DNA of 64,000 nt, taken from positions 1 to 64,000 of the IMG/VR virus record IMGVR_UViG_3300031772_000001; one strand, 5' to 3'. The notes beneath the pieces were generated by a model. That model searched no databases. It was not told where the DNA came from and worked only from the letters and a program-made list of their open reading frames with translations. The position numbers and the translations under genes were made by a program. Below are positions 1 to 60,083 of the stretch, in pieces (position 1 is the stretch's first letter; each line of letters begins with the position of its first letter). The DNA comes from a virus.

Positions 1-126
1 CTGTATCAAAGATCGAAACATTTCCAAGATTCTCTTGAACTGATAGCTGCTCAAAAGTGGTAACTGTATCAAAGATCGAAACATTTCCAAGATTCTCTTG
101 AACTGATAGCTGCTCAAAAGTGGTAA
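1..126. repeat. Exact 63-bp tandem repeat (2 copies visible) encoding a 21-aa unit
   Basis: CTGTATCAAAGATCGAAACATTTCCAAG...GTGGTAA at 1-63 and 64-126. Confidence 0.95.
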
Positions 127-1351
127 CACCATCGAATACTACTATTGAAGTTGGAGGTATATCTACATCTGTATTCTCCAAAACATGTACTAACTCATAA
201 ACAACAACAGTGATATTTTCAGATTCTTCAACCACATCAAAGACAGAAACAGTATCAACTACAGATATGTAAATAACAGGATTAGAGACACTTAGATTTT
301 CAGAAACATTGACATCCTCAGATATACCTATTCTTCCTAAATCCTCACGGGCATCTATATTTTCAAAAACAGACACAGCCTCAGATACCGAAACACCCCC
401 AAGACTCTCAAACAAAGTCAACAATTCCGACACAGCTATAGAATCAGAAACAGAGATACTCCCAAGATTAAGAACAGAAACACTAACAGCATCAAATACA
501 GAAACAGAGTCATTTATGCTTATAGAACCAAGATCCTCCTGCACACTCAAAACATCAAAAACAGATACCGAGTCAGATACACCTATACTTCCAAGATTAA
601 GAACACTTAAACTCACTACATCAGAAACAGTAATAGTATCACTTACACTAACTGCCCCAAGGTCTTCCTTTACAGACAATACCTCAGAAACACTTACTGT
701 CTCAGAGACAGAGACAGAAGGCAATGGAGAACTAACACTAAGAAGCTCAGAAGAAGTTACCGTATCAGAAACTAAGATATTACCAAGAGTTTCTTGCCCG
801 ATCAACAATTCAGATGTGGTAACTATGTCAGAGACAGAAATACTACCAAGAACCTCTTGGACTGTTACCAATTCAGAAGAAGTTACCGTATCTGAAATTG
901 AAATTAAACCAAGACTCTCCTGAACTATCAACTGCTCAAAGGCAGCCACAGTATCAAAAATCGAAATATTACCAAGAGTTTCTTGTACTGATACTAACTC
1001 AGAAACAGTAACTGCGTCTGAAACAGAAATATTTCCAAGATTCTCTTGAATTGTCACCAATTCAGACGTAGTAACTGTGTCAGAAACAGACAAAAGAATT
1101 GGATTAAGACTAATAGACAGTGTTTCGTTAGTAGCAATAGCATCAGATATGCTTATTGCACCAAGGTCTTCTCTTACCGTCAATAATTCTGAAGTTGAAA
1201 CAGTGTCAGAAACTGACACCAAAAGGGGAATTGAAACAGACAAAGACTCTGTTAGGGAAACAGAGTCAGAAATAGAAACACGTCTTGAAGGACGTAAACC
1301 AACAAAGGGTACGCCAAGTACCGTTACTTTTGTAACGGCAGTAGAACCCAT
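1..1351 (-). CDS. Repeat-rich Ser/Val/Asp structural (tail/fibre-like) protein, truncated at the window edge; absent from the ORF track
   Basis: ATG at 1351-1349 abuts the upstream TAA (1352-1354). Frame reads MGSTAVTKVTVLGVPFVGLRPSRRVSISDSVSLTESLSV... with ~21-aa repeats (SVSDTVTTSELVTIQENLGNI) and no stop seen before position 1. Confidence 0.8.
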   Translation of the reverse strand, partial: MGSTAVTKVTVLGVPFVGLRPSRRVSISDSVSLTESLSVSIPLLVSVSDTVSTSELLTVREDLGAISISDAIATNETLSISLNPILLSVSDTVTTSELVTIQENLGNISVSDAVTVSELVSVQETLGNISIFDTVAAFEQLIVQESLGLISISDTVTSSELVTVQEVLGSISVSDIVTTSELLIGQETLGNILVSDTVTSSELLSVSSPLPSVSVSETVSVSEVLSVKEDLGAVSVSDTITVSDVVSLSVLNLGSIGVSDSVSVFDVLSVQEDLGSISINDSVSVFDAVSVSVLNLGSISVSDSIAVSELLTLFESLGGVSVSEAVSVFENIDAREDLGRIGISEDVNVSENLSVSNPVIYISVVDTVSVFDVVEESENITVVVYELVHVLENTDVDIPPTSIVVFDGVTTFEQLSVQENLGNVSIFDTVTTFEQLSVQENLGNVSIFDT

Positions 1352-15487: not shown

Positions 15488-16630
15488 TTGAGGTGTGTAC
15501 CCTATCCGGCCAAATGCCTATCCTCCACAGTTTATAGTGGACAGACTTTTCTGGCAGGGTTCTTTAGCCGCCCTGTGCAAAATGTTAATGGCTGCGTTAT
15601 AATCCGCGTCCATCTCCACTTTACAATCAATACACTTGTACCGCTCGCCCACACGAGACTCCTTGTGTATTGATCCACACACTGAACAAGTCTGGGAAGT
15701 GTAAGCTGGATTGACCTTTGTAAGAAGAACACCGTTCTCCTCACAAGTTCTCACCAGCTTACCTATTGCCGATAAATAGACCCAATACTGCAACTTGTTC
15801 ATAAACTTTGTCGAAATTCGATGATCCTTCTTAGAATTTCTTTTGACGTTCTTTAGGTCTTCTATAGCAAGACTGTTTACGTTTGACAGGTCTAACTCGT
15901 TCACAACTCGGTTAATTTCATTGTCCCGGAATCTCAAACTCTGCTTAAAATTCTTAGAGTTCCTTACCTTCTTTGATATGTCTGTACAAACTTGCTCAAT
16001 ATCGGTCCCTAAAAACTGACCATCGGAAGTTGAAAGCAATTTCTTGTAGCCAATATCAACTCCCAAAGACTTACCTGTAGATTTTATTACAGGTGCCTCT
16101 TTCTCAAAAGTCAAAAACACAAAATACTTGCCGGATTCGTCTTTGGTTAATTTGATGTTCTTCTTACGCTTCCAATCAGCATACTTCAAATAATGCTTGT
16201 GATACTTGATTGGTAAGTTTATTGTGACTGCTCGATGCTTACCATCCTGAAAATAGGGCAATCGAATATGAATAAACTCATCAAAATGACCATCTTCTTG
16301 TACTTCAATATCAAACATCCGGTCATCCAACGAGATTGAAGTATTTTGTATCTCTGGCTTTGATTTTTTCTGTTTCTTCTGATTGGACCTGATAATCTCA
16401 GATGCTTGCTTATATAAAATTTGTTTCCAAGCAGAATAAGTAAAAAGATTTGAAGGACAATCCTTAGAACTGAGAAACTTCTTCAGTGGAAGTTTCTTAT
16501 CCCAAATTTGATCTATATAAAACTGTAAGTCAACCTTATAGTCTTGAAATAACTGGTCTAATTGCTTAGACTTAGTACCAGTTTGATACTTCAAAATGTG
16601 TTTGGTTGATCTTAACATAATTATCTATGT
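15488..16630 (-). mobile_element. Solo IS200/IS605-family (IS1341-like) TnpB element
   Basis: Right end ends in TCAA (15491-15488); inferred left junction follows TTAT (16634-16631); removing it restores a short ORF; no tnpA in the window. Confidence 0.65.
15518..16618 (-). CDS. tnpB: RNA-guided endonuclease TnpB
   Basis: RuvC-I GVDIG, RuvC-II AIEDL, VNPAYTSQTCSVCG and CIDC zinc finger, RuvC-III DADYNAAINIL. Confidence 0.93.
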   Translation of the reverse strand: MLRSTKHILKYQTGTKSKQLDQLFQDYKVDLQFYIDQIWDKKLPLKKFLSSKDCPSNLFTYSAWKQILYKQASEIIRSNQKKQKKSKPEIQNTSISLDDRMFDIEVQEDGHFDEFIHIRLPYFQDGKHRAVTINLPIKYHKHYLKYADWKRKKNIKLTKDESGKYFVFLTFEKEAPVIKSTGKSLGVDIGYKKLLSTSDGQFLGTDIEQVCTDISKKVRNSKNFKQSLRFRDNEINRVVNELDLSNVNSLAIEDLKNVKRNSKKDHRISTKFMNKLQYWVYLSAIGKLVRTCEENGVLLTKVNPAYTSQTCSVCGSIHKESRVGERYKCIDCKVEMDADYNAAINILHRAAKEPCQKSLSTINCGG

Positions 16631-23329: not shown

Positions 23330-26275
23330 TTACTTTCGATCTTCAGGAGACAAGAACACACCCTTCAAGAAATTCACAGCACTTACCTTCTTTCCTTCAA
23401 AAAGATTACCCATCTTCTCATAGGTTAGTGACCTGAAAACATTGAGAGACGGAACCCTTCTGAGGTCATTCTCTTTGACCACCCTACTGAGGCAGGAACT
23501 AAAAGCAAGAACCGCTTTGTTGAAGTCCATATTTTCCGGCAAAAGTTTTCGGATATTTCTATGCAAATCAGTCCGCTTCAAAACCTCCGCTCGAAGATTA
23601 CCCAAGATTTCCTCAGACAAAACCTTCTTTGCCACACCCTCATAATACTCTGGTGTTGCCTTCTCATAAGCATCAATTGGTGTCAAACTTCGATCATACA
23701 TCTCAGTCATAAAAGCAGAAATCTCTTCGTGATCCTTATGAGACAGGGACAAATTCTTTGCCCTCATCACATTCAAAGCAGAATAGAACTCGGGGTAAAT
23801 TTCAACAAACCGATCATACAAACCCTCACAAACCTTGCTGTCTGTCAACTTATCAAACTCAACAAGCAACGGGCTTATAGCACAAAGAGTAGCATCATCA
23901 AGTTTTGAAAACTCCTGCAAAGCATCTGTATCAACCTCTAAGTTTTCTGAATACTTTTTGATGTTTGCTACAATCACACCTTTATCTGCATCCCCAAACT
24001 TATACACAAGAACATTCTCTACAATAGCAGGAATATTAGAGTTTCCTAACAAAGAATCCGCTATCTCTATACCCCTAAACTCAACACCAAAACGCTTACA
24101 AGATTCAGTCAGCTTCTCAATTCGCTTCTCTTGATTATCCTCGTTTATATGGGAGTTGTTCAAAAGATGAAAAACTTCCACAATTGCGGAATCATAAGAC
24201 AAGCTCTCTTCCACTTCCAAAGCAGAGAAACCGCATCGGCCACACTTACCACCAAACCCTTCACAAGCACACCTTGGGCAAATCATACTCTTTACCCCCA
24301 CCCCAGAGGAAAGAACCTGCTCAAGATCGTACCCACAATCCGTACAGTGCTTTGGATAACGCCCACGATACTTCGGAATCAACATCCCGCACGAAGGACA
24401 CTGGCCCTTGTACTTGATCTTGTCAAAAGCAGTCTGCATCCCCGGAGTCATGCCTTGCTCATTTGTCTGCTCATCCGTCTGCTCCCCAAATCTCTTAGCA
24501 ACCTTTTCTATTGCATTCAACATCCTCTCTTCTTTCTTTGCACACTCAGCACAGAAAAGACCAAACGCCTTATTAGAAAGTTCACCTTCTTTACCACACC
24601 TCGCACATTTACCTGTTTTCTTAGAAGATCCTTCTTCTATCTGCTCCCAATTCATATTATTTGCGAGATACTGAGCATGAAGATCATTTACTACCTTCAT
24701 ATCCTTAATACCAAACTGTTGTGAAAACTGAGTAAGAGTCTTACCAGTATCTTTCAAGTCAGAATGATCCTTAAACCAATCAAACATCTTTCGTGTGATA
24801 TTCACACCAGACTCATTTACCTGCTCATTCTGGTCAATAACACTGCCTTTCTTATGAAAAGGAGGATACGTCACCAGAGCATCACCTTCTTTGTTGACCA
24901 TGTAATAACCAGCCAACGTACTATCTTTTACCCTACTCTCATATCCCATCTTCTTAGCAAGTGCATCAAACTCTTTCAAAGTAATATCTGAGGCAATTAC
25001 CTTCGCTTTTCCAGTATCAGTTGTTTCCTTGTTTACCAAAGCAACTGACACTTTAAGAGTTACTTCTACTACCTGCTCATCAAACTTTTTATCCATCGGT
25101 ATAGCTGCATCAGTCCTTACCCCGGAAGGGGGCTTTTCTCTTTTCGATATAAACCAACTATCTCTGTCCTTCCCCTGCCACGCAATAACACCCTTTGGCA
25201 ATTTACCAGCATACGATTTTACAGCCTTGTATGTCACCAAATATGTCCCACCATCCATGATATTCTTTATCATCTTCTCTAAATCATCTGTATCCTCAAT
25301 TATTACATCCTCTTTTATCTCTGACATCTTCTTTACATTCGTAGCCCAATCAGGCAACTCACCTCTCACCAAATACCAAGTCTTATCCCCGTTCTTTTCT
25401 TGAAACGCATGAGTATCTTGGGGAACCTTACCAATAAACTGTTTCAGGTCTTTCTCACTTCCGATCTTAACAATAGCACTCTCTAAAGACACCAAAATAC
25501 CTTGCAAGTCTGTACTAGCTACCCGCTCTACCACTACCTGCTCACTAACTCCCTCTTTCTTAGTCTGTGATTTAAGCACGTCTTTCAAAAAATCTATAGC
25601 CTTAACAGCATACCCATCAAATATCTTTCTTGTTCCTTTGAAAAGAGCTACCTTTCCAACCTTATCAATATTGCTTCTCTCAAGAGTAGCCTTGAAAGCT
25701 GTATTGTACTCAGTAATGTACTTATCAAGCTCTTCCTCGTCTACCTTACTCTCACCCACCACAGAAGCCTCCGGCTGTACCAAGTGCTCCCCACACTCAG
25801 GACAAAACTTAGGATACCTGCCTGGGTAAGTAGGAACCACAAACCCGCAACTGTCACACTTCTTCCAAACATTACCCTTAGAAACACTTCCGTAAACAGC
25901 CTTTCCCATACCCGGAGTCATCTGCTCATTCAATTTATCCAAAACAACACTGGCAACAGTACAGATTGTTGCTGCTTCCTTTGTTGTAATTACTGATTCC
26001 ATGTACTTACGAAAAAGAGAATCAAGAAATATTCCCAAATCAGAAATTCCTGATATGGAATCCTTATCTACACCCTTGACTTTTTTCATTAAGTCAAGTA
26101 TACTCTTAGAAACTTCTTTTGCTTGGGATTTTACATCGGAAGGGAAGTCAACAACAAAATCTCCAAGAGCCTTCAGGAACTCGGCTCCCTTTTCGAGATC
26201 AGAAATTGACTTCACATACTGCGAAGGAACCGACTTAGAAACGGCATCTTCAAATGCATTCTGTTGACCTAACAT
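23330..26275 (-). CDS. Large modular head-region protein with several zinc ribbons
   Basis: Duplicated MTPGM...CxxCG...YxGRYPKxCxxCG module; many xxE linkers; start taken at MLGQQ. Confidence 0.7.
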   Translation of the reverse strand: MLGQQNAFEDAVSKSVPSQYVKSISDLEKGAEFLKALGDFVVDFPSDVKSQAKEVSKSILDLMKKVKGVDKDSISGISDLGIFLDSLFRKYMESVITTKEAATICTVASVVLDKLNEQMTPGMGKAVYGSVSKGNVWKKCDSCGFVVPTYPGRYPKFCPECGEHLVQPEASVVGESKVDEEELDKYITEYNTAFKATLERSNIDKVGKVALFKGTRKIFDGYAVKAIDFLKDVLKSQTKKEGVSEQVVVERVASTDLQGILVSLESAIVKIGSEKDLKQFIGKVPQDTHAFQEKNGDKTWYLVRGELPDWATNVKKMSEIKEDVIIEDTDDLEKMIKNIMDGGTYLVTYKAVKSYAGKLPKGVIAWQGKDRDSWFISKREKPPSGVRTDAAIPMDKKFDEQVVEVTLKVSVALVNKETTDTGKAKVIASDITLKEFDALAKKMGYESRVKDSTLAGYYMVNKEGDALVTYPPFHKKGSVIDQNEQVNESGVNITRKMFDWFKDHSDLKDTGKTLTQFSQQFGIKDMKVVNDLHAQYLANNMNWEQIEEGSSKKTGKCARCGKEGELSNKAFGLFCAECAKKEERMLNAIEKVAKRFGEQTDEQTNEQGMTPGMQTAFDKIKYKGQCPSCGMLIPKYRGRYPKHCTDCGYDLEQVLSSGVGVKSMICPRCACEGFGGKCGRCGFSALEVEESLSYDSAIVEVFHLLNNSHINEDNQEKRIEKLTESCKRFGVEFRGIEIADSLLGNSNIPAIVENVLVYKFGDADKGVIVANIKKYSENLEVDTDALQEFSKLDDATLCAISPLLVEFDKLTDSKVCEGLYDRFVEIYPEFYSALNVMRAKNLSLSHKDHEEISAFMTEMYDRSLTPIDAYEKATPEYYEGVAKKVLSEEILGNLRAEVLKRTDLHRNIRKLLPENMDFNKAVLAFSSCLSRVVKENDLRRVPSLNVFRSLTYEKMGNLFEGKKVSAVNFLKGVFLSPEDRK

Positions 26276-29200
26276 GGAGTAATTTTGCCCTTTCCTGTAT
26301 TGCAGGAACTCGAAGGTCACTGTGAGAAGGTTTATTGACCCTCTCTTTAATCCAAAACCCAGAACCCACTAAATTTCGGATTTTTTCGGCTCTTACTTTG
26401 GTAGTACCGCTACCGTTGGAGCCATCACCTTCTTCTTGAAGTATATCAAGTTCTGACTCAACACCCTCTTCTTCACCTTCACCCTCCTCGCCACTCCCAC
26501 CTTTTCCTCCACCCTTACCCTCCTCATCCCCTTCATCATCGCCGCTTGGCTTTCCCTTCCTTCTTGGAACCGGAACAGAACCACGAGAACCAAGAGCATC
26601 AGACTTCGAGGAAGAAGACTTATTTCCTAACAACTTATCAATATCAAGATCGGGAAATGCAAATATCTGCTTGAATATGTACTCAACATACATCTTCTTG
26701 TTGATAATTCCTTCCATCTCCCCAGACAAACCAAGCATAGACGTAGCAATACCAATCTTTCTTTCCGTGTACTCCAAACGAGAATCTTCCTCTGCCGAAG
26801 AAATTGGAACCATCCCAATAGACAAATCTTCAACACTTATATCCTGACTGTACTTGTAAGACAGGTGAATTTGAAATAGCCGATACATCCCCTCAATAAG
26901 TGCCCTCTGCACCTTCTTGACCATACGAGCATATCGAATATCCAAACGAGTAAGAGTCTGTGAACCAGAAAACCCCGGTATACTTTCAGAATTGTGAACA
27001 AACACACCACAAGAGAGAGAGAAGTTGTGGTTGTCACTTTCAACAGTTAAATCATAAGCATCTTCAACAACATCAAGATATTCTACATTTACAACTCTAT
27101 GATTGTAACAATTTGCTGCCATCTTCCTTTCAGAAATCATCTTACTATTTGCTTTAGCTCGACAAACCCTCTGGCATCTAACACAGCAAAACCTTGGTGT
27201 CTGTAAGTATGAAGAAATGTCGTTGTAAGGAACCTTCTTCATAAACATCTTCCCACACTCATCACAACAAATCTCAAACTCCTGTGGGTGATAATCACCC
27301 CACCTACCCTGAACCATCTTACCCTTCCAAGAAGCAAACTCAGGACTATCAGGGGAAATAGTCTTCATATAATTAAAGGATTTTCTTCTCCCCTCCTGAA
27401 TAGCCTTAATTATTCCCTGCCTTGCTTTCTCTCTATACTCAGGATTAGCCATCGGGTTATTCTCACCCTTCTGGTAATCCCTGTTAATACCCATCAAAGA
27501 CTTTGATACTTTTGCACCAAACCCATCCGGCTTCTTTCTCCCTTTTCCCAAAACAGACATTCTTTTGGAATACTCAAGCCTCTCCTCTGAAGACATAGCC
27601 TCCCGTCTCTTCCTTGCTGAAACACTTCCCAAAGACCTGCCCATATCTAAAACACTTGCCATCTCTGGATGATACTTAACAAAATGCTCTCGCCTATTCT
27701 CACAAATTGCCAGATTTAAGGCATCATTATTACTCTTGACTTTATCTCTATGATGAACAACTTGCTCAGAAGATAGAACCTTCCCACCATTCAACAAATC
27801 TTCTGCAACAAGACGGTGTACCCGAACATAATGCCGATCCTTATTATCAATAATTCCATAATATCCCTTCTCTGCCCCAGACAACTCAAAGTAATATAGA
27901 GGCATTAAAGATTCCCCAGAGACAAGTTTCTCTGCCTCTTTGTAAGACCCATCTCTTAACATACACCTATGGTCAGGGGTAACGTCAAAATATTCTCCGT
28001 TATCAAGATGCACCCTAACATACTTCGCATTAAGTCGCGTCTTGTTAATATCAGAGATATTCGTGGCGTGAACCCTGCCATCCTTATCACTTGTAAAAAT
28101 TGTCTTGCCCCTGAAATATTCCTTATTCTCAAACATCTCCCTAATAGTAGGTGTAGTTCCATCACATAACCGAATACCAGTGTTTCCTCTCAAACACATT
28201 CCTAAAAATGCGCCGGGGATGCGGATAGCTGCAAGTAGCTTATCCCGAATATACTCAATATCAACTATGTCTTTTATGTTTACATCACCACCAACCGTCT
28301 CAACTCGCATATCCCCTTTTGTACCTGTATAGGGAATAAAAACCTCGTCATTATACTGCAAAGGATTGTACTTCATACGATAGAAATTCACAGGAATATC
28401 TATTGCCTTCTTCTGCATAAATTTCTGCTCAAGATCCTGAATCAAATCCCTACGCTCATCCTTTGTCATACCCTCAGTATTTACATAAAACACACGTATA
28501 AGGGGAGATCGGGCAAGACGAGCAAGAGCAAGAGAGACTTCAAGCAAATTCAGGATACGATAAATCAATCTTGCGTTCTGCAAAATTGACGTACCATACA
28601 TCGAAGTAAGAATCTTTTCAACTAACTTACGCTCACCCTTCGGAACATCCCCACGTCTATTTGCATCAATCATCCTACGGGAAGGAGATTTCTGAGGATC
28701 ACCGCTATCAACATCCCAAGTTGACTTATCAAAAGGTTTTGTATCCTTTGTCTTATCTCCATACTCAGCAGGCTCATCCTCGGCCTCCCCTGTCTTATCC
28801 TCCCCCTCCACAGACTTTTGCATTTCATCTTCCCACATCTTGACCTTTACAGACTCAAAATTGGGTTTGAAGTTGTTGATGAAATGCACATACCCTGAAG
28901 AGTCCATTATCTCTTCCTTACGGGCAGAAATATCCTTCTTGATAAAACAAGCAAGTTTTCCGTCTATGTCAATACGATAAACACTTTTTGGATGTTCCGA
29001 CTCACGAATATTAGTGATCCCTTCACCCTTCTTAGGGTAAACCCTTAACATGAAATCACCATACTTCGCAATATTATAGGTCCACCCCCAAACCTTATTC
29101 TCAAAATCAATTGTTGAAAGAAACTCTTGAAGTTCGTGGCCGTACTTATGCTTTCCACCAATCCATAAAGTACCATTCATTTCATGGGAGTATTGTGTAG

Positions 29201-29483
29201 CATCATCAACAACTAACTCCAAAGCAGATGAAATAATTGGATCTTCTTCCATCTGATCATAATCAGAATACCGAGATTCACGATCTTTTTCCAGTTTCGT
29301 AGCAGCAGAAAACAACTCCCAAACACGACCCTCATTCATCAAAACTTTTACAGTATTCGTTGCCTTATCATCAACAACATACACCTCATTTGACTGACCA
29401 TTTTTTGCATCAGCCTGAAGAGCCTCAAGAACAATATTCTCGTTGACTCTTAACCCACCCTTTTCAAACAGACGAACAGACAT
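26250..29483 (-). CDS. Portal protein (T4 gp20-like) containing an intein
   Basis: YDQMEEDPIISSALELVVDDA; KYGDF; LARLARSPLIRVFYV; DIEYIRDKLLAAIRIP; LTRLDIRYARMVKKVQ. Confidence 0.9.
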   Translation of the reverse strand: MSVRLFEKGGLRVNENIVLEALQADAKNGQSNEVYVVDDKATNTVKVLMNEGRVWELFSAATKLEKDRESRYSDYDQMEEDPIISSALELVVDDATQYSHEMNGTLWIGGKHKYGHELQEFLSTIDFENKVWGWTYNIAKYGDFMLRVYPKKGEGITNIRESEHPKSVYRIDIDGKLACFIKKDISARKEEIMDSSGYVHFINNFKPNFESVKVKMWEDEMQKSVEGEDKTGEAEDEPAEYGDKTKDTKPFDKSTWDVDSGDPQKSPSRRMIDANRRGDVPKGERKLVEKILTSMYGTSILQNARLIYRILNLLEVSLALARLARSPLIRVFYVNTEGMTKDERRDLIQDLEQKFMQKKAIDIPVNFYRMKYNPLQYNDEVFIPYTGTKGDMRVETVGGDVNIKDIVDIEYIRDKLLAAIRIPGAFLGMCLRGNTGIRLCDGTTPTIREMFENKEYFRGKTIFTSDKDGRVHATNISDINKTRLNAKYVRVHLDNGEYFDVTPDHRCMLRDGSYKEAEKLVSGESLMPLYYFELSGAEKGYYGIIDNKDRHYVRVHRLVAEDLLNGGKVLSSEQVVHHRDKVKSNNDALNLAICENRREHFVKYHPEMASVLDMGRSLGSVSARKRREAMSSEERLEYSKRMSVLGKGRKKPDGFGAKVSKSLMGINRDYQKGENNPMANPEYREKARQGIIKAIQEGRRKSFNYMKTISPDSPEFASWKGKMVQGRWGDYHPQEFEICCDECGKMFMKKVPYNDISSYLQTPRFCCVRCQRVCRAKANSKMISERKMAANCYNHRVVNVEYLDVVEDAYDLTVESDNHNFSLSCGVFVHNSESIPGFSGSQTLTRLDIRYARMVKKVQRALIEGMYRLFQIHLSYKYSQDISVEDLSIGMVPISSAEEDSRLEYTERKIGIATSMLGLSGEMEGIINKKMYVEYIFKQIFAFPDLDIDKLLGNKSSSSKSDALGSRGSVPVPRRKGKPSGDDEGDEEGKGGGKGGSGEEGEGEEEGVESELDILQEEGDGSNGSGTTKVRAEKIRNLVGSGFWIKERVNKPSHSDLRVPAIQERAKLLHVRSTECI
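26991..28196 (-). mobile_element. Intein (402 aa) with HNH homing endonuclease in the portal gene
   Basis: GM|CLRGNT...TPDHRCML...VHHRDKVKSNNDALNL...GVFVHN|S. Confidence 0.9.
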
Positions 29484-55243: not shown

Positions 55244-57230
55244 CAAGAACCCTTTGTAATAAGCAACCTTTTCTTTACCCAAGAAGATACTTCTTTTTCT
55301 TTTGCTTCTGCATTACTCGCATCTATAACAGTCTGCTTCTCCCACCACTCATCAACCTCCTTCGGCACAACAATACCTGCCGCTTCTGCTTCATGCAAAA
55401 CATCAAGTATCTCACGAGGAGGAAGAATATCACAAAGCATTTTCTTTTAAGCTCCAATCCCATTACCAACAGAAGTCAAAACATCAATAGCCCTCTTAAC
55501 TTCCTCTTGTTGCTTTAACACTTCATTAAAATCATCTATATCTCGAACAGAATCATACCTTTTCATAATAAACTCCAACTCGTCATACCTATTCTGAAGG
55601 TATCTAATAGTATGTGGGAATTTCTTGTAATTCATATTTTCCTCTACAACTCCCAAATAAACATGTCCGTACCAAATCGCCTTCCTAAAGTCCCCAAATA
55701 AATTGCTTTTTGAACAGGAGTAACTACGTCCGGGTGAGAATCACTAACACTAAACAAATCAAAGGATGGGTGACTATCTGTAGACTGATTTTCCTTGATA
55801 GCATACTCTGTAGCAACTGCCTTTGAACCTACAGTGTAGATACTGCCAGTAACATTATTCCGAACAAGATACAACATACAAATCCTCCTTTATATTGCCA
55901 GCCAATTACTAATCTCCGTAACAACTGCACTTATCTCCCGAACATCAGCATCATCTACCCTATCCAAAAAATAAAAAGCCTCACAAATAGTCTGCCTCAA
56001 CTCAGCAACCGTAAGCTCTGAAACCTTCTTCTCAACACCATCAAAAACACCAGCAATTACTTCAGTTGGCTTATACCTCAAAGGTATAATAATTCTCTTT
56101 TTGATATTTTTCATAGTTAATCCCTCTTCCTTCTCAGAATCTTCTTGACCTCTTCAATCTCCTGCTTGTTAGGACTCCTATACTGATCATCCAACACCCA
56201 CGCATTCCCATTCTCAAGATCAAAACATCAACCATCCAGCACCACAACACCAATCACACTCGTAGGGAACCTTACACCCACAAGCAACAGTACATGCCTT
56301 ACTCGGCCCCACCGTATGCGCCGCACCATAATCCCGCTCACCCCAAAGTAAACTTGCCTGCTGCATCACAAACCCATAGCCCAACCTCTCACAAATCTGT
56401 TTTACCTGTGCAGTATGCAGCTTATTCATCCCGTCAATCCGACGCTGCAACGCCTCACTCGCCTTTATTTCTTTTTCACTTCTCATATTGTAGGCTCCAC
56501 AACAGGGACAATAATTGTAGCTTCACTTACAGCAATGCTAAGACCTTCAACAACAGGCTCAATAACTGGCTCGATAACTGGCTTAACCTCAGCAAGAACT
56601 TCCGGGGCAACTTCTTTTACAGTTTCCTCAACCACAACAGGAGGTGGAGGGTACATCTCATCCCAATTTGACGGCTTCACACCAACAACCTCAATGTCCT
56701 TCTCCTTGTAACCGTTCTTCTTCAGCCACTCCAACGCACGCTCCGATACATCAACAATGGTAGGAAAATCCTTACCACGATGAATCTGTGACACATGCGC
56801 GTAACCCCACGGAGTAGTCAACGTAACCGTTGTGGTCTTAGGCGGCAGCTTCTCTTCCTTCTTAGCCATTATTTATCTCCCTGTTCCTATTACAACGTGA
56901 TACAATCCCCACAGAACTGTCAACACAAAAGCCAAAAAATACGAGTCATCCTTACAAACCATAGACTGAATGCCTGTGATGATCCATGACAGGATCACCA
57001 CAGACAAACCAGGATGATTTAACATCGCCCTAACAACATCAAACACCTCACTCATCCTTTTTCTTTTCAAAAACAGGAATACCCTGACAACTCATCTCGT
57101 GCTGCACTCCCTCATGCACCACATGCACCGGCCTACGCTCACCATCAGGAAATTTCAAAAAAGAAACATCCTCCTCCGGGGTGCAATCCCGTTTGCAAAA
57201 ACCACAAATTACTTCTTGCTTGGACATCAA
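55243..57230 (-). other. Run of ~8 small hypothetical genes
   Basis: Abutting or overlapping ORFs: 55243-55440, 55447-55656, 55644-55877, 55890-56114, 56220-56486, 56483-56869, 56873-57070, 57048-57230. Confidence 0.55.
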
Positions 57231-57242
57231 AACCCCCTGTTA

Positions 57243-57878
57243 AATCACCATTACCATACCTGAAATCACCATACAACACCAATACTGGACTCCACATCAC
57301 ATAATTCTACTGCACATCACCACACCTTTACGTCACATGACATCACCCGACCGCACGTTACTATACCATCACCTAACTGGACAAAACCGCACGCCACTCC
57401 ACCGCACCGTCACATGACCACACCGAACGCCACTACACCATACCATAACTATACGATACCGCATAACAACTGCACCCCACCAACACTGAAATCCACTGCA
57501 ATCTACTGTACCAATACCTAACGTCACGCAAAGACACCTTATCTTCACCCAACCTGACAGTAGATAACTCCACGGAACGACACCAAACCAATACTGAACA
57601 TCACTCCAACAGACCGGACCCCACCCAACACAACTCAACCGTTACCGTACTCGACGTAACCCCACAAAACTCTACCATCACCAAATTGTACACAATCTCA
57701 CCGAACTCCACCGTCACATCATTGTACAGTAGATAACTCAACCATCACAATATCGTAACGAAACTCGATGTCACTTAACCCAACTTCACCATAACAGCAC
57801 GGAACGATACTGCACCCCACCGCACCAAACCATACCCTAACAGCACGGTATCACACCCCACGACACCCGACCATTACA
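57243..57878 (-). ncRNA. Pentamer-periodic (NNN-GT)n non-coding array, putative guide-RNA array
   Basis: Minus strand reads e.g. GGT ATGGT TTGGT GCGGT GGGGT GCAGT ATCGT TCCGT GCTGT TATGGT GAAGT...; starts right after the RAMP gene stop. Confidence 0.8.
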
Positions 57879-58583
57879 TTAAACTACTTTTGTCAAGGTG
57901 TAGTCATACCTTCCGTACATGCCTGAGTTACGCCACTGACCAATACCCATATACCGGGAAGAGTAATCCAGCAACGTCCTCAGCAACTCCTCGGTCAGTG
58001 TGAACCTTGGTGTCTCCAAGCACTGAATCTGACAATCAAAATGAGCACCCTCCTCAATCATCTCACTCCGCAACAGAAACACACGCGGCCCATCCTTACC
58101 TATCACACGTACTCCACGCTCCAGAAACCCAATCGGCTTATCTGTAATGAGGGGAATCCTTCTGGGATTGACATTAACTGTCCGTGTCACGTTGGCAAGA
58201 AAAGCAGTTACTTTCTCACCAACCTCAACAACATCATCACCATCACTATCATCACCCTTTTTCTTCTTCTTAGTCACCATCTTACCCGTTGCCAAACCAT
58301 TCAACGTAGACGCGGAATCCTTCAGGGCACCCTTCACAACATACGTATAGAGAAGAGGGTTCCCGTCTGCATCCCGATGAAAGCACGTAGTGCCCTTCTT
58401 CACCTCATCCGGCAACGAATCAATTTCTTCTTGAACCTGCTGCGGAGTAAGGTGTGGGTTCTCTTCCAAAATCTTCTTTATCAGATAGTCAAGGGCAATG
58501 GAATCATTGCCAGGCTGACTACCAAGAACCTGAGAATTGAACACCACACTCAAATCGTACACAGACTCTTTCAACAAAGACAT
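57879..58583 (-). CDS. Stand-alone Cas7-like RAMP-fold protein
   Basis: N-terminal strand LSVVFNSQVLGS; PLLYTYVVKGALKD (RAMP PxxxxxxxKGxxR-like); C-terminal Gly-rich loop GIGQWRNSGMYGRY. Confidence 0.75.
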   Translation of the reverse strand: MSLLKESVYDLSVVFNSQVLGSQPGNDSIALDYLIKKILEENPHLTPQQVQEEIDSLPDEVKKGTTCFHRDADGNPLLYTYVVKGALKDSASTLNGLATGKMVTKKKKKGDDSDGDDVVEVGEKVTAFLANVTRTVNVNPRRIPLITDKPIGFLERGVRVIGKDGPRVFLLRSEMIEEGAHFDCQIQCLETPRFTLTEELLRTLLDYSSRYMGIGQWRNSGMYGRYDYTLTKVV

Positions 58584-58690
58584 ACACCCATCCTTTGATT
58601 AAAGTTAAAATAACACCCATCCAATTCAGACATCCTTATAGTATACGTTATCCTCACCAAAAAACATCAGCTTGTCTTACTGCTATTAAT

Positions 58691-59278
58691 TTAGGCAACC
58701 AGAGACTCCTCAGACTCATCAACCGCCGGACCACGCACCACCACATAATCTGAAAAAATGTCCTCTATGATCTCAGCCGTAGTCCTCTTGTCATACCAGA
58801 CGTTCAATTCAGTAATACGGTTGTTGCACTCCTTGGCATCATCAATGTATTTCTTAGCCTTACTTAACGCACCACACCCCAAGGCATCAAAAACTTTCCT
58901 CAAAATCGTCGCAGCAGTGTCTTCACCATCAACAAGAACTGTGTTTTCTTTTGAATCTAAAATAAATTCATGGAAAACTCGCTTTGAAAAGACAGGCACC
59001 TCCGACTTTGGCAGCTTCCGAAGATAGTAAAATTCCCGCATCAAGCGTGGAAGATCGGCCTCCCGAACAGACTCCGGGGATAAGCTATACTCTGGCATCA
59101 CCGAATCATCACGCACGAGCTTCTGTATCATCACAAGATATACCTTGTCACCAACGGCAATCTGTGACCAAAAAGGCTTCTGATTCAGTGCCTCAAGCAC
59201 CAAATCGTCCTCAGCAATCAGCATGTACTTCTTATCATAAGACAAGAACCTCTTCTTGAACAACTCAAGATCCTGCAT
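58691..59278 (-). CDS. Hypothetical protein
   Basis: 195-aa ORF. Confidence 0.65.
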   Translation of the reverse strand: MQDLELFKKRFLSYDKKYMLIAEDDLVLEALNQKPFWSQIAVGDKVYLVMIQKLVRDDSVMPEYSLSPESVREADLPRLMREFYYLRKLPKSEVPVFSKRVFHEFILDSKENTVLVDGEDTAATILRKVFDALGCGALSKAKKYIDDAKECNNRITELNVWYDKRTTAEIIEDIFSDYVVVRGPAVDESEESLVA

Positions 59279-60083
59279 TGATTACCCCACTTCTTAGAAC
59301 ACGAATACGTTCTTCTGCTACCTGACAATACTTCTCTTCCTTCTCAATCCCAATAAAATTTCTTTTGGTATTTATACAAGCAATCGCAGTTGTTCCTGAT
59401 CCTATGCAATTATCAAGAACAACATCATTTTCATTTGTGTAAGTACGAATAAGATACTCAAACAATGCTACAGGTTTTTGGGTTGGGTGAAGCCCCGCCT
59501 CCCTCGCATGATATGCTGTTGAAAATTCTACAACAGAACGAGGATACCCGACATCAGTACCTACAGAACGAAAAACCCCTTCCGTAAATTTACCACACGT
59601 CTCAGTCATCACTGTTTTTTGTGCTGCTCTATGACTTGGCTTTACAAAAAATTGTGGGTTATATGGAGGAACACCATAACAAAAAATAAGAATATCCTCA
59701 TGCTGTCGAAGAGGACGCTTTTTTGCATTTAAGAACCCGACAGTATTAGACTTTCTCCAACACATATCATACTTAAAGTTTGAGACATTGCTCATCACTA
59801 AAGCAGAAGTAAATGGCTGTGACGCAGTTAGTACAATGACACCATTACAGATTCTCTCATACTCCTTCCATAACGGCTCAAATGGAATAACTGTGTCCCA
59901 TTTACACTGTGTAGTTCCATAAGGCAAATCACATAACACCATATCAATACTCTTATCAGGTATTAATGGCATTACCTCAAGACAATCACCATGAATTATT
60001 GTATTTATTTGCAACGCACCATCTCCCGTTAGATACTCTCCCCGGCCACGGTGAAGTTGTATTGCCAGCCCTTCTCTGTCCAC
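59265..60083 (-). CDS. DNA amino-methyltransferase (N6A/N4C, beta-type order); start may be downstream
   Basis: IHGDCLE...LCDLPYG...HPTQKPVAL...VLDNCIGSGTT...GIEKE. Confidence 0.92.
   Translation of the reverse strand: MDREGLAIQLHRGRGEYLTGDGALQINTIIHGDCLEVMPLIPDKSIDMVLCDLPYGTTQCKWDTVIPFEPLWKEYERICNGVIVLTASQPFTSALVMSNVSNFKYDMCWRKSNTVGFLNAKKRPLRQHEDILIFCYGVPPYNPQFFVKPSHRAAQKTVMTETCGKFTEGVFRSVGTDVGYPRSVVEFSTAYHAREAGLHPTQKPVALFEYLIRTYTNENDVVLDNCIGSGTTAIACINTKRNFIGIEKEEKYCQVAEERIRVLRSGVINAGS

Follow-up and report, generated by a model that had tools for sequence, protein, structure and literature searches.

A probable VIPR locus with a relaxed, punctuated pentamer array in a large T4-like environmental phage

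The subject of this study is a locus on the minus strand of IMG/VR virus record IMGVR_UViG_3300031772_000001. Positions 1 to 64,000 of this record were analysed as one stretch of DNA (the window), and coordinates below refer to it unless another locus is named. The locus consists of a gene for a solo Cas7-like RAMP protein followed by a 629-nucleotide (nt) tract in which GT recurs every five nucleotides. We consider it very probable that this is a genuine Viral Interference Programmable Repeat (VIPR) system, composed of a vipr gene and a vrRNA array, of the relaxed YNNNG type and with a punctuated array that has no tails. The locus belongs to a kind of system that was published in 2026 and is not a new kind. 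The identification is based on the protein, which has a Cas7 fold and is homologous to a tested Vipr, and on the array, with its periodicity statistics, its conserved synteny with the gene and the hypervariable positions of its repeats. Expression of the RNA, filament formation, binding of double-stranded DNA (dsDNA), the rule of skipping one nucleotide, and silencing would be expected of the locus by analogy with the literature on phage SUSP1.

VIPR is a recently described form of RNA-guided DNA silencing that has been proposed to be older than CRISPR, and every locus dissected in detail adds to the map of its variety. The systems are mostly viral and lie outside CRISPR-Cas loci. The publications are three preprints from the Doudna laboratory (10.64898/2026.04.26.720920, 10.64898/2026.04.26.720927, 10.64898/2026.10.15.759431) and a fourth paper (10.64898/2026.10.21.760802), all from 2026. 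A VIPR system has a solo ancestral RAMP protein, Vipr, and vrRNAs of 9-16 YNNGG repeats plus a 3' tail. In SUSP1 there is one Vipr protomer per pentamer; the GGY is sequestered by the protein, and the NN pairs to dsDNA with every third target base skipped. The outcome is transcriptional silencing of satellites and prophages. Seven types (I-VII) and six accessory vap genes are distinguished; a vap gene beside vipr is typical but not universal. The array variants described include tail-less 'staggered' arrays, for which the legend gives a 1-nt overlap, and arrays interspersed with ribozymes (10.64898/2026.04.26.720920, 10.64898/2026.04.26.720927). The methods of the first VIPR preprint state that loci without YNNGG showed NNNGG, YNNNG and NNNNG repeats. 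The fourth paper used a genomic language model and reported 21 clusters of period-5 arrays beside Vipr-like folds, with a trinucleotide that is degenerate at one position, for example WGT/NN (10.64898/2026.10.21.760802).

Fold and homology of the Vipr protein

The gene and two of its segments, the latter placed by alignment, are as follows.

57879-58583, minus strand: vipr gene, encoding a minimal Cas7-like RAMP of 234 amino acids (aa), Vipr family
58224-58277, minus strand: codons of an insertion, Lys-rich then Asp-rich, residues ~103-120
57909-57947, minus strand: codons of the glycine-rich loop, residues 213-225 (G-I-G-Q-W-R-N-S-G-M-Y-G-R)

The open reading frame (ORF) holds VVKGALKD and, close to the C-terminus, GIGQWRNSGMYGR. 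A first reading of the letters of the window, referred to below as the original prediction, had taken the KGALKD motif and the terminal loop of this 234-aa ORF as RAMP-like hallmarks. Both proved to be among the best-conserved columns of Vipr, represented by K88 in the helix following Y81 and by G213, Q216, W217, R218, N219, S220 and G224 in the loop. Among 25 homologues, the loop columns G213, Q216, W217, N219, S220 and G224 never vary, and G215, R218 and G221 are nearly invariant. The Lys/Asp insertion is present only in this protein and in its closest relative (the P0001/P0002 pair).

A single-sequence search of Pfam, PHROGs and the PDB sequences with Vipr returned nothing meaningful. An AlphaFold2 (AF2) model of the fold, built from 25 homologues, reached a predicted local distance difference test score (pLDDT) of 89.3 and a predicted template modelling score (pTM) of 0.81; within the insertion, pLDDT falls to ~81-84. 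Foldseek returned 172 matches at E <= 1e-3, and the top matches were all Cas7-type RAMPs, namely type VII Cas7, Csm3 and Cas7-11 (probability 1.0, E ~3e-8). The RAMP fold that had been proposed for the ORF is thus borne out by the model. The whole genome contains one RAMP copy, as judged by a search with the Vipr family profile.

The VIPR locus of SUSP1 was found in KT454805, where vipr (28474-29061, 195 aa) is followed by a 146-aa gene and NNGGT arrays with tails lie on both sides. When 72 members of the present family were aligned with 37 members of the SUSP1 Vipr family using hhalign, the two profiles matched end to end over 190 columns (Prob 96.5%, E 9.8e-10). With a single-sequence SUSP1 template the probability was only 58.8%. 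The original prediction had named VIPR as a reported kind of system, and this homology connects the locus to it.

In SUSP1 Vipr, H17 and D177 read G1, R138 and W178 read G2, and R179 with its neighbours reads the pyrimidine (10.64898/2026.04.26.720920, 10.64898/2026.04.26.720927). In the profile alignment, which is robust in the G-loop and less so in the N-terminal and thumb parts, the glycine-rich loop aligns with the SUSP1 G-loop C173-R184. W217 corresponds to W178, which stacks on G2, and R218 to R179, which holds Y3. At the positions of the two G1 readers the residues differ: D177 is matched by Q216, a nearly invariant Q in the family, and H17 by S22, which is T in most relatives. The unfixed first G of the GGY fits the replacement of both G1-reading residues, and the changes D177->Q216 and H17->S22 would be a simple and testable reason for its relaxation. 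A conserved E-R-P-L-R stretch (family positions 155-159) may hold the counterpart of SUSP1 R138-P139.

The repeat array and its conservation in the family

The array was defined by full tokenisation, an independent parse and shuffle statistics.

57247-57875, minus strand: vrRNA array, 629 nt

It starts at 57875, 3 nt past the vipr stop codon (57879-57881), so that the claim that it follows the gene with no gap is effectively correct. Its 3' end runs into the ribosome-binding site of a small ORF (57048-57230). Full tokenisation of all 629 nt generated 122 tokens, consisting of 103 pentamers and 19 hexamers. 88/103 pentamers end in GT (NNNGT), and the other 15 are weaker, ending in T alone or lacking the anchor. 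NNNGT becomes YNNNG when written from the pyrimidine, and the 88 clean units compare with the four or more adjacent repeats asked of a VIPR array. The second parse used dynamic programming and rewarded only GT at 5-nt spacing. It produced 74 clean NNNGT pentamers and 14 hexamers. A further 16 pieces were longer; 13 of these measure 10 nt and are mostly NNNNT + NNNGT, and the other 3 measure 11 nt. Position 3 of the 74 clean pentamers is G in 39%, A in 27%, C in 18% and T in 16%, which agrees with the earlier statement that only GT is well fixed.

The periodicity was compared with 1000 dinucleotide-preserving shuffles. Lag-5 identity over 57247-57875 is 0.479 against 0.307 +/- 0.019 in the shuffles (z 9.2; shuffle maximum 0.372), and 74 GT...GT pairs are spaced at lag 5 against 22 +/- 4. 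The original prediction had described GT every 5 nt over ~630 nt and had proposed autocorrelation of 57243-57878 as a check; period 5 was indeed present, together with +1 slips. Additional autocorrelation peaks at lags 21 and 26 are phase slips and are due to the regular +1 hexamers described below. Among 3196 windows of 100 nt across the 64-kb window, a period-5 score >0.35 was reached only at 57261-57900. Runs of at least five ACNNN/NNNGT units occur in this tract only, out of the whole 167,660-bp genome. No repeated non-pentamer tail was found in the array, its direct-repeat families being the pentamer lattice at 36/41-nt spacing. A comparison of the array with Rfam gave no family or ribozyme match, and its folding is weak (z -1.8).

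The Vipr family comprises 974 cluster representatives at E <= 1e-3. At least 554 of its loci are confirmed as viral and 124 are in prokaryotic genomes, mostly metagenome-assembled genomes (MAGs) of gut Clostridia. A period-5 tract was present at 74/80 IMG/VR homologue loci and lay downstream of the gene in 72/80, as had been anticipated for homologues in other phages; most tracts begin within ~100 nt of the gene. The anchor is GT or GC in every family array compared and position 3 is unfixed, with G in 17-48% of pentamers in relatives with a GT or GC anchor. No neighbouring protein gene recurs among 160 homologue loci. Judged from these sequence comparisons, nothing beyond the RAMP gene and its pentamer array is conserved as a module.

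The closest relative is a 156.6-kb phage (L001/G001) with a Vipr that is 55% identical and with ~72 kb of alignable DNA in common. Its array is 820 nt long (L001 3664-4483) and has ~158 tokens, including 27 NNYGGT hexamers. No guides are common to the two arrays, and no shared guide run is longer than chance. Between these two related phages the scaffold is kept while the variable positions are hypervariable.

Along the array one hexamer occurs every 16-51 nt (5n+1). The tokenisation divides the tract into the following units, each opened by its hexamer.

57840-57875, minus strand: unit 1, 36 nt, hexamer AATGGT
57794-57839, minus strand: unit 2, 46 nt, hexamer TAGGGT followed by 8 clean pentamers (no other clean guide is as long)
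57758-57793, minus strand: unit 3, 36 nt, hexamer TATGGT
57747-57757, minus strand: irregular piece, 11 nt
57716-57746, minus strand: unit 4, 31 nt, hexamer GATGGT
57680-57715, minus strand: unit 5, 36 nt, hexamer GACGGT
57644-57679, minus strand: unit 6, 36 nt, hexamer GATGGT
57593-57643, minus strand: unit 7, 51 nt, hexamer AACGGT
57542-57592, minus strand: unit 8, 51 nt, hexamer ATTGGT
57516-57541, minus strand: unit 9, 26 nt, hexamer TAAGGT
57485-57515, minus strand: unit 10, 31 nt, hexamer ATTGGT
57464-57484, minus strand: unit 11, 21 nt, hexamer GTTGGT
57448-57463, minus strand: unit 12, 16 nt, hexamer TGCGGT
57412-57447, minus strand: unit 13, 36 nt, hexamer TATGGT
57371-57411, minus strand: unit 14, 41 nt, hexamer GACGGT
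57330-57370, minus strand: unit 15, 41 nt, hexamer GATGGT
57284-57329, minus strand: unit 16, 46 nt, hexamer AAAGGT
57253-57283, minus strand: unit 17, 31 nt, hexamer ATTGGT
57247-57252, minus strand: closing hexamer AATGGT

In the parse that does not favour GGT, 14/14 hexamers end in GGT where ~39% would be expected (P ~2e-6). The hexamers here follow the consensus N-A-Y-G-G-T; those of the closest relative phage follow N-N-Y-G-G-T, and 27/29 of them end in GGT. Across 64 family arrays, 82% of 681 hexamers end in GGY, whereas only 30% of 2017 pentamers have G as their third base, and slips of -1 are rare (28). Four gut-phage relatives (L010, L039, L046, L077) were examined in the stretch that lies ~10-370 nt beyond their vipr match (extract positions 160-520). 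Their pentamers end alternately in GC and GA, and hexamer-bounded cassettes, such as those opening with TAAGGC, recur in differing order or combination between related phages. This suggests that the cassettes are modular units, like shuffled guide cassettes. We infer that the hexamers mark units, for processing or for filament nucleation.

A more specific model would make the array of this clade an unbroken series of mini-guides, each 3-10 repeats long and without a tail. A conserved +1 hexamer NNYGGY, holding the only complete GGY of the unit, would open each mini-guide as a processing or nucleation mark, and loss of the G1 readers would free the third base of every repeat. We put this forward tentatively and regard it as rather unlikely as it stands. 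If true, and if it is not already the 'staggered' array of the preprint, the clade would assemble by another rule than the tested type II system and might read a slightly different code.

Target searches and rival explanations

Following the SUSP1 precedent, the array would be transcribed with or after vipr, and Vipr protomers would bind the RNA, one per pentamer. In each repeat the conserved G-U, together with the unfixed base that precedes it, would be hidden in the protein, which would leave the first two variable bases exposed. The resulting helical filament would pair these dinucleotides with dsDNA, skipping every third base, and the DNA-bound filament would block transcription of a competing mobile element or phage. 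The original prediction had arrived at a solo RAMP on a 5-nt-periodic RNA, read as a gapped code for silencing rather than cutting. This agrees with the published SUSP1 system; fold, homology, array and the conserved pairing of gene and array were found here, and the interpretation is supported.

Targets were sought with guides decoded as the first two bases of each pentamer. The phage's own genome, with the array masked, and that of the closest relative were scanned using 0-3 skipped bases or three bases read, for six to seven reading rules in all. Larger collections were scanned for exact patterns derived from units 2, 7, 8, 14 (running into the next hexamer) and 16. In IMG/VR, a pattern with 16 fixed bases gave 26 unclustered matches, about the chance number. 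Another four skip-rule patterns, which had 18-22 fixed bases and in one case ran across a hexamer, gave 0 IMG/VR matches, as did two 24-base patterns in which three bases are read, contiguous or mirrored. In GTDB, a pattern with 18 fixed bases gave 20 matches, with ~17 expected by chance. 5/20 of these matches represent one conserved ispG (GcpE) motif in rumen Salinivirgaceae MAGs.

L198:2871-2896 and four related loci (L199, L207, L213, L214): ispG matches

The ispG match covers 20/20 informative bases over ten consecutive tokens (the last pentamer of unit 1 plus unit 2), with the skips at wobble positions. It counts as one independent match among the ~17 expected by chance and no other guide converges on it. 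ispG was rejected as a target and the match was ascribed to chance.

Several points weigh against the identification of the locus as a VIPR system. In the phage's own genome and in the closest relative no reading rule performed above shuffled guides, a comparison that the original prediction had proposed. The exact pattern scans of IMG/VR and GTDB found no target under any reading rule; as these scans were mismatch-free and the guides short (10-20 informative bases), they are weak negative evidence. No vap gene, tail or terminator was found at the locus. The family hidden Markov model (HMM) meets PDB entry 36pp, 'SUSP1 Vipr protein', only at E 0.16 and type VII Cas7 at E 5e-5, and the best PDB matches by both structure and sequence are RNA-targeting Cas7 proteins. 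A quick family-profile search of the SUSP1 genome also gave no match at E<=10. From this empty search and the value for 36pp it follows that the two Vipr clades are distant.

One alternative is that the same ribonucleoprotein (RNP) acts on RNA, with the filament binding competitor transcripts or helping to cut them, as the Cas7 backbones of types III and VII do. The closest structural matches, Csm3 and type VII Cas7, both come from RNA-targeting complexes, and it is the G-loop region of type VII Cas7 that the family profile meets better than SUSP1 Vipr. Against this, the profile homology to the dsDNA-binding SUSP1 Vipr family is full-length, the family has no invariant acidic residue to act as a Csm3-type catalytic Asp, and no partner nuclease is conserved nearby. 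We therefore felt that action on RNA is improbable.

The tract could also serve as a sponge that binds Vipr, as decoy or scaffold RNA, or as an element acting at the level of DNA (protein-binding or curved DNA), its variable bases carrying no target information. The target scans, which yielded no target, and the shortness of the units would suit such a role, and satellites are known to use vrRNAs as decoys (10.64898/2026.10.15.759431). However, the variable positions have fully diverged between two related phages and the scaffold has been kept, a pattern that fits fast-evolving specificity better than neutral filler. The reordered hexamer-bounded cassettes of the gut relatives also speak against it, and in SUSP1, where arrays built in this way have been tested, they are guides. 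On balance a role without target information is very improbable. That the tract is a chance or compositional artefact, or an oddly composed coding region, is refuted: the G/T-rich strand does accommodate ORFs of 46-89 aa, but z is 9.2 against dinucleotide shuffles, no reading frame is compatible with a period of 5 broken by +1 slips, and the tract is kept behind homologous genes at 72/80 loci.

Taken as a VIPR system, the locus puts such a system into a complete, large T4-like environmental phage and leaves the picture of how VIPR systems work unchanged. There are two possible additions to that picture. One is an explanation, at the level of single residues, for the fixing of G-U alone in some clades. 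The other is the punctuation of 64 arrays by +1 hexamers, from which the lengths and termini of mature RNAs can be predicted. Should the short units without tails prove functional, they would offer compact programmable guides.

The phage genome and comparison with known systems

The record is a complete T4-like phage genome of 167,660 bp with direct terminal repeats; it also has a T4-type portal and a clamp loader. Around the locus every gene of the window is on the minus strand, as are all VIPR elements. No DNA similarity of the phage to known phages was found, tblastn gave matches in four unannotated gut phages only, and no close relatives were found among metagenome contigs. Further features in the window are listed below.

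57048-57230, minus strand: 60-aa ORF directly following the array; it contains a C-x-x-C and, further on, a second pair of Cys
58584-58690, minus strand: 107-nt intergenic stretch 5' of vipr, a possible promoter region, without a repeat tract
58691-59278, minus strand: unannotated 195-aa ORF preceding vipr
59265-60083, minus strand: N6/N4 DNA methyltransferase (PF01555, E 2.9e-29), two genes upstream of vipr
26250-29483, minus strand: T4-type portal, 1077 aa (Portal_T4, E 2.9e-39)
15518-16618, minus strand: TnpB-like gene, 366 aa, Cas12f1-like TNB domain (PF07282, E 2.4e-18), PHROG 'transposase' matches

A consensus scan of the intergenic stretch 58584-58690 found no convincing sigma-70 site. 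The 60-aa ORF has no family match and is not kept beside other vipr genes. The candidates for vap genes, which are the 195-aa ORF upstream and ORFs of 60, 65, 128 and 88 aa downstream, gave no Pfam or PHROG match. The 3' end of the methyltransferase gene overlaps the start of the 195-aa ORF. An intein, comprising a splicing domain and an HNH endonuclease, interrupts the portal (residues ~439-831). Tandem repeats of 63 nt and 126 nt are found at window positions 1-127 and 746-1090 within large minus-strand ORFs and are probably repeated protein domains of a structural protein. The product of the TnpB-like gene is possibly an RNA-guided nuclease, judging from its domain, and is unlinked to the VIPR locus. 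The original prediction had stated that the window has no other cas genes and no repeat-spacer array. The second part stood, with no repeat-spacer array detected by Tandem Repeats Finder in the 64-kb window; the first needs a small correction in view of this TnpB-like gene.

The locus shares with SUSP1 type II VIPR (the SUSP1/P. fulva clade) the order of vipr then array on one strand, the pentamer ending in GT, and the G-x-G-x-W-R core. SUSP1 repeats are NNGGT, and G occupies position 3 in 69% of clean pentamers compared with 39% here. Each SUSP1 vrRNA has 9-16 repeats in one register and a conserved pseudoknot tail, whereas the present array is tail-less and slips by +1 every 3-10 repeats; the ~100-nt vrRNAs with a structured 3' tail that characterise type II were not found here. 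In SUSP1, vap1 lies downstream of vipr, whereas here no vap1 was found and the array follows vipr directly. The phages differ as well, SUSP1 being an Ounavirinae phage of 91 kb and the present phage T4-like and 168 kb.

Compared with the Cas7 proteins of class 1 CRISPR systems (Csm3 of type III-A, type VII Cas7), the locus has no repeat-spacer array, shows no other cas genes among the neighbours screened and has neither a large nor a small subunit; its step would be 5 nt, not the 6 nt of those systems, and the guide would be read gapped. Class 1 CRISPR-Cas is recognised by a repeat-spacer array with further cas genes such as Cas5 and the large subunit, and the locus falls outside it.

The likeness to VIPR systems lies in a solo, minimal Cas7-like RAMP with a G-loop and thumb, encoded by a phage without a CRISPR array, and in adjoining 5-nt repeats with a fixed G-pyrimidine and a variable leading dinucleotide. 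An array with only GT fixed had been presented as a departure from reported systems. This implied novelty did not hold, since YNNNG repeats, in the methods of the first preprint, and WGT/NN repeats were already published. The NGT/NN array described here is of the same kind as the non-canonical WGT/NN arrays found with the language model, although hexamer punctuation is not mentioned in that paper (10.64898/2026.10.21.760802). The closest described VIPR forms are the YNNNG-type repeats and the 'staggered' arrays.

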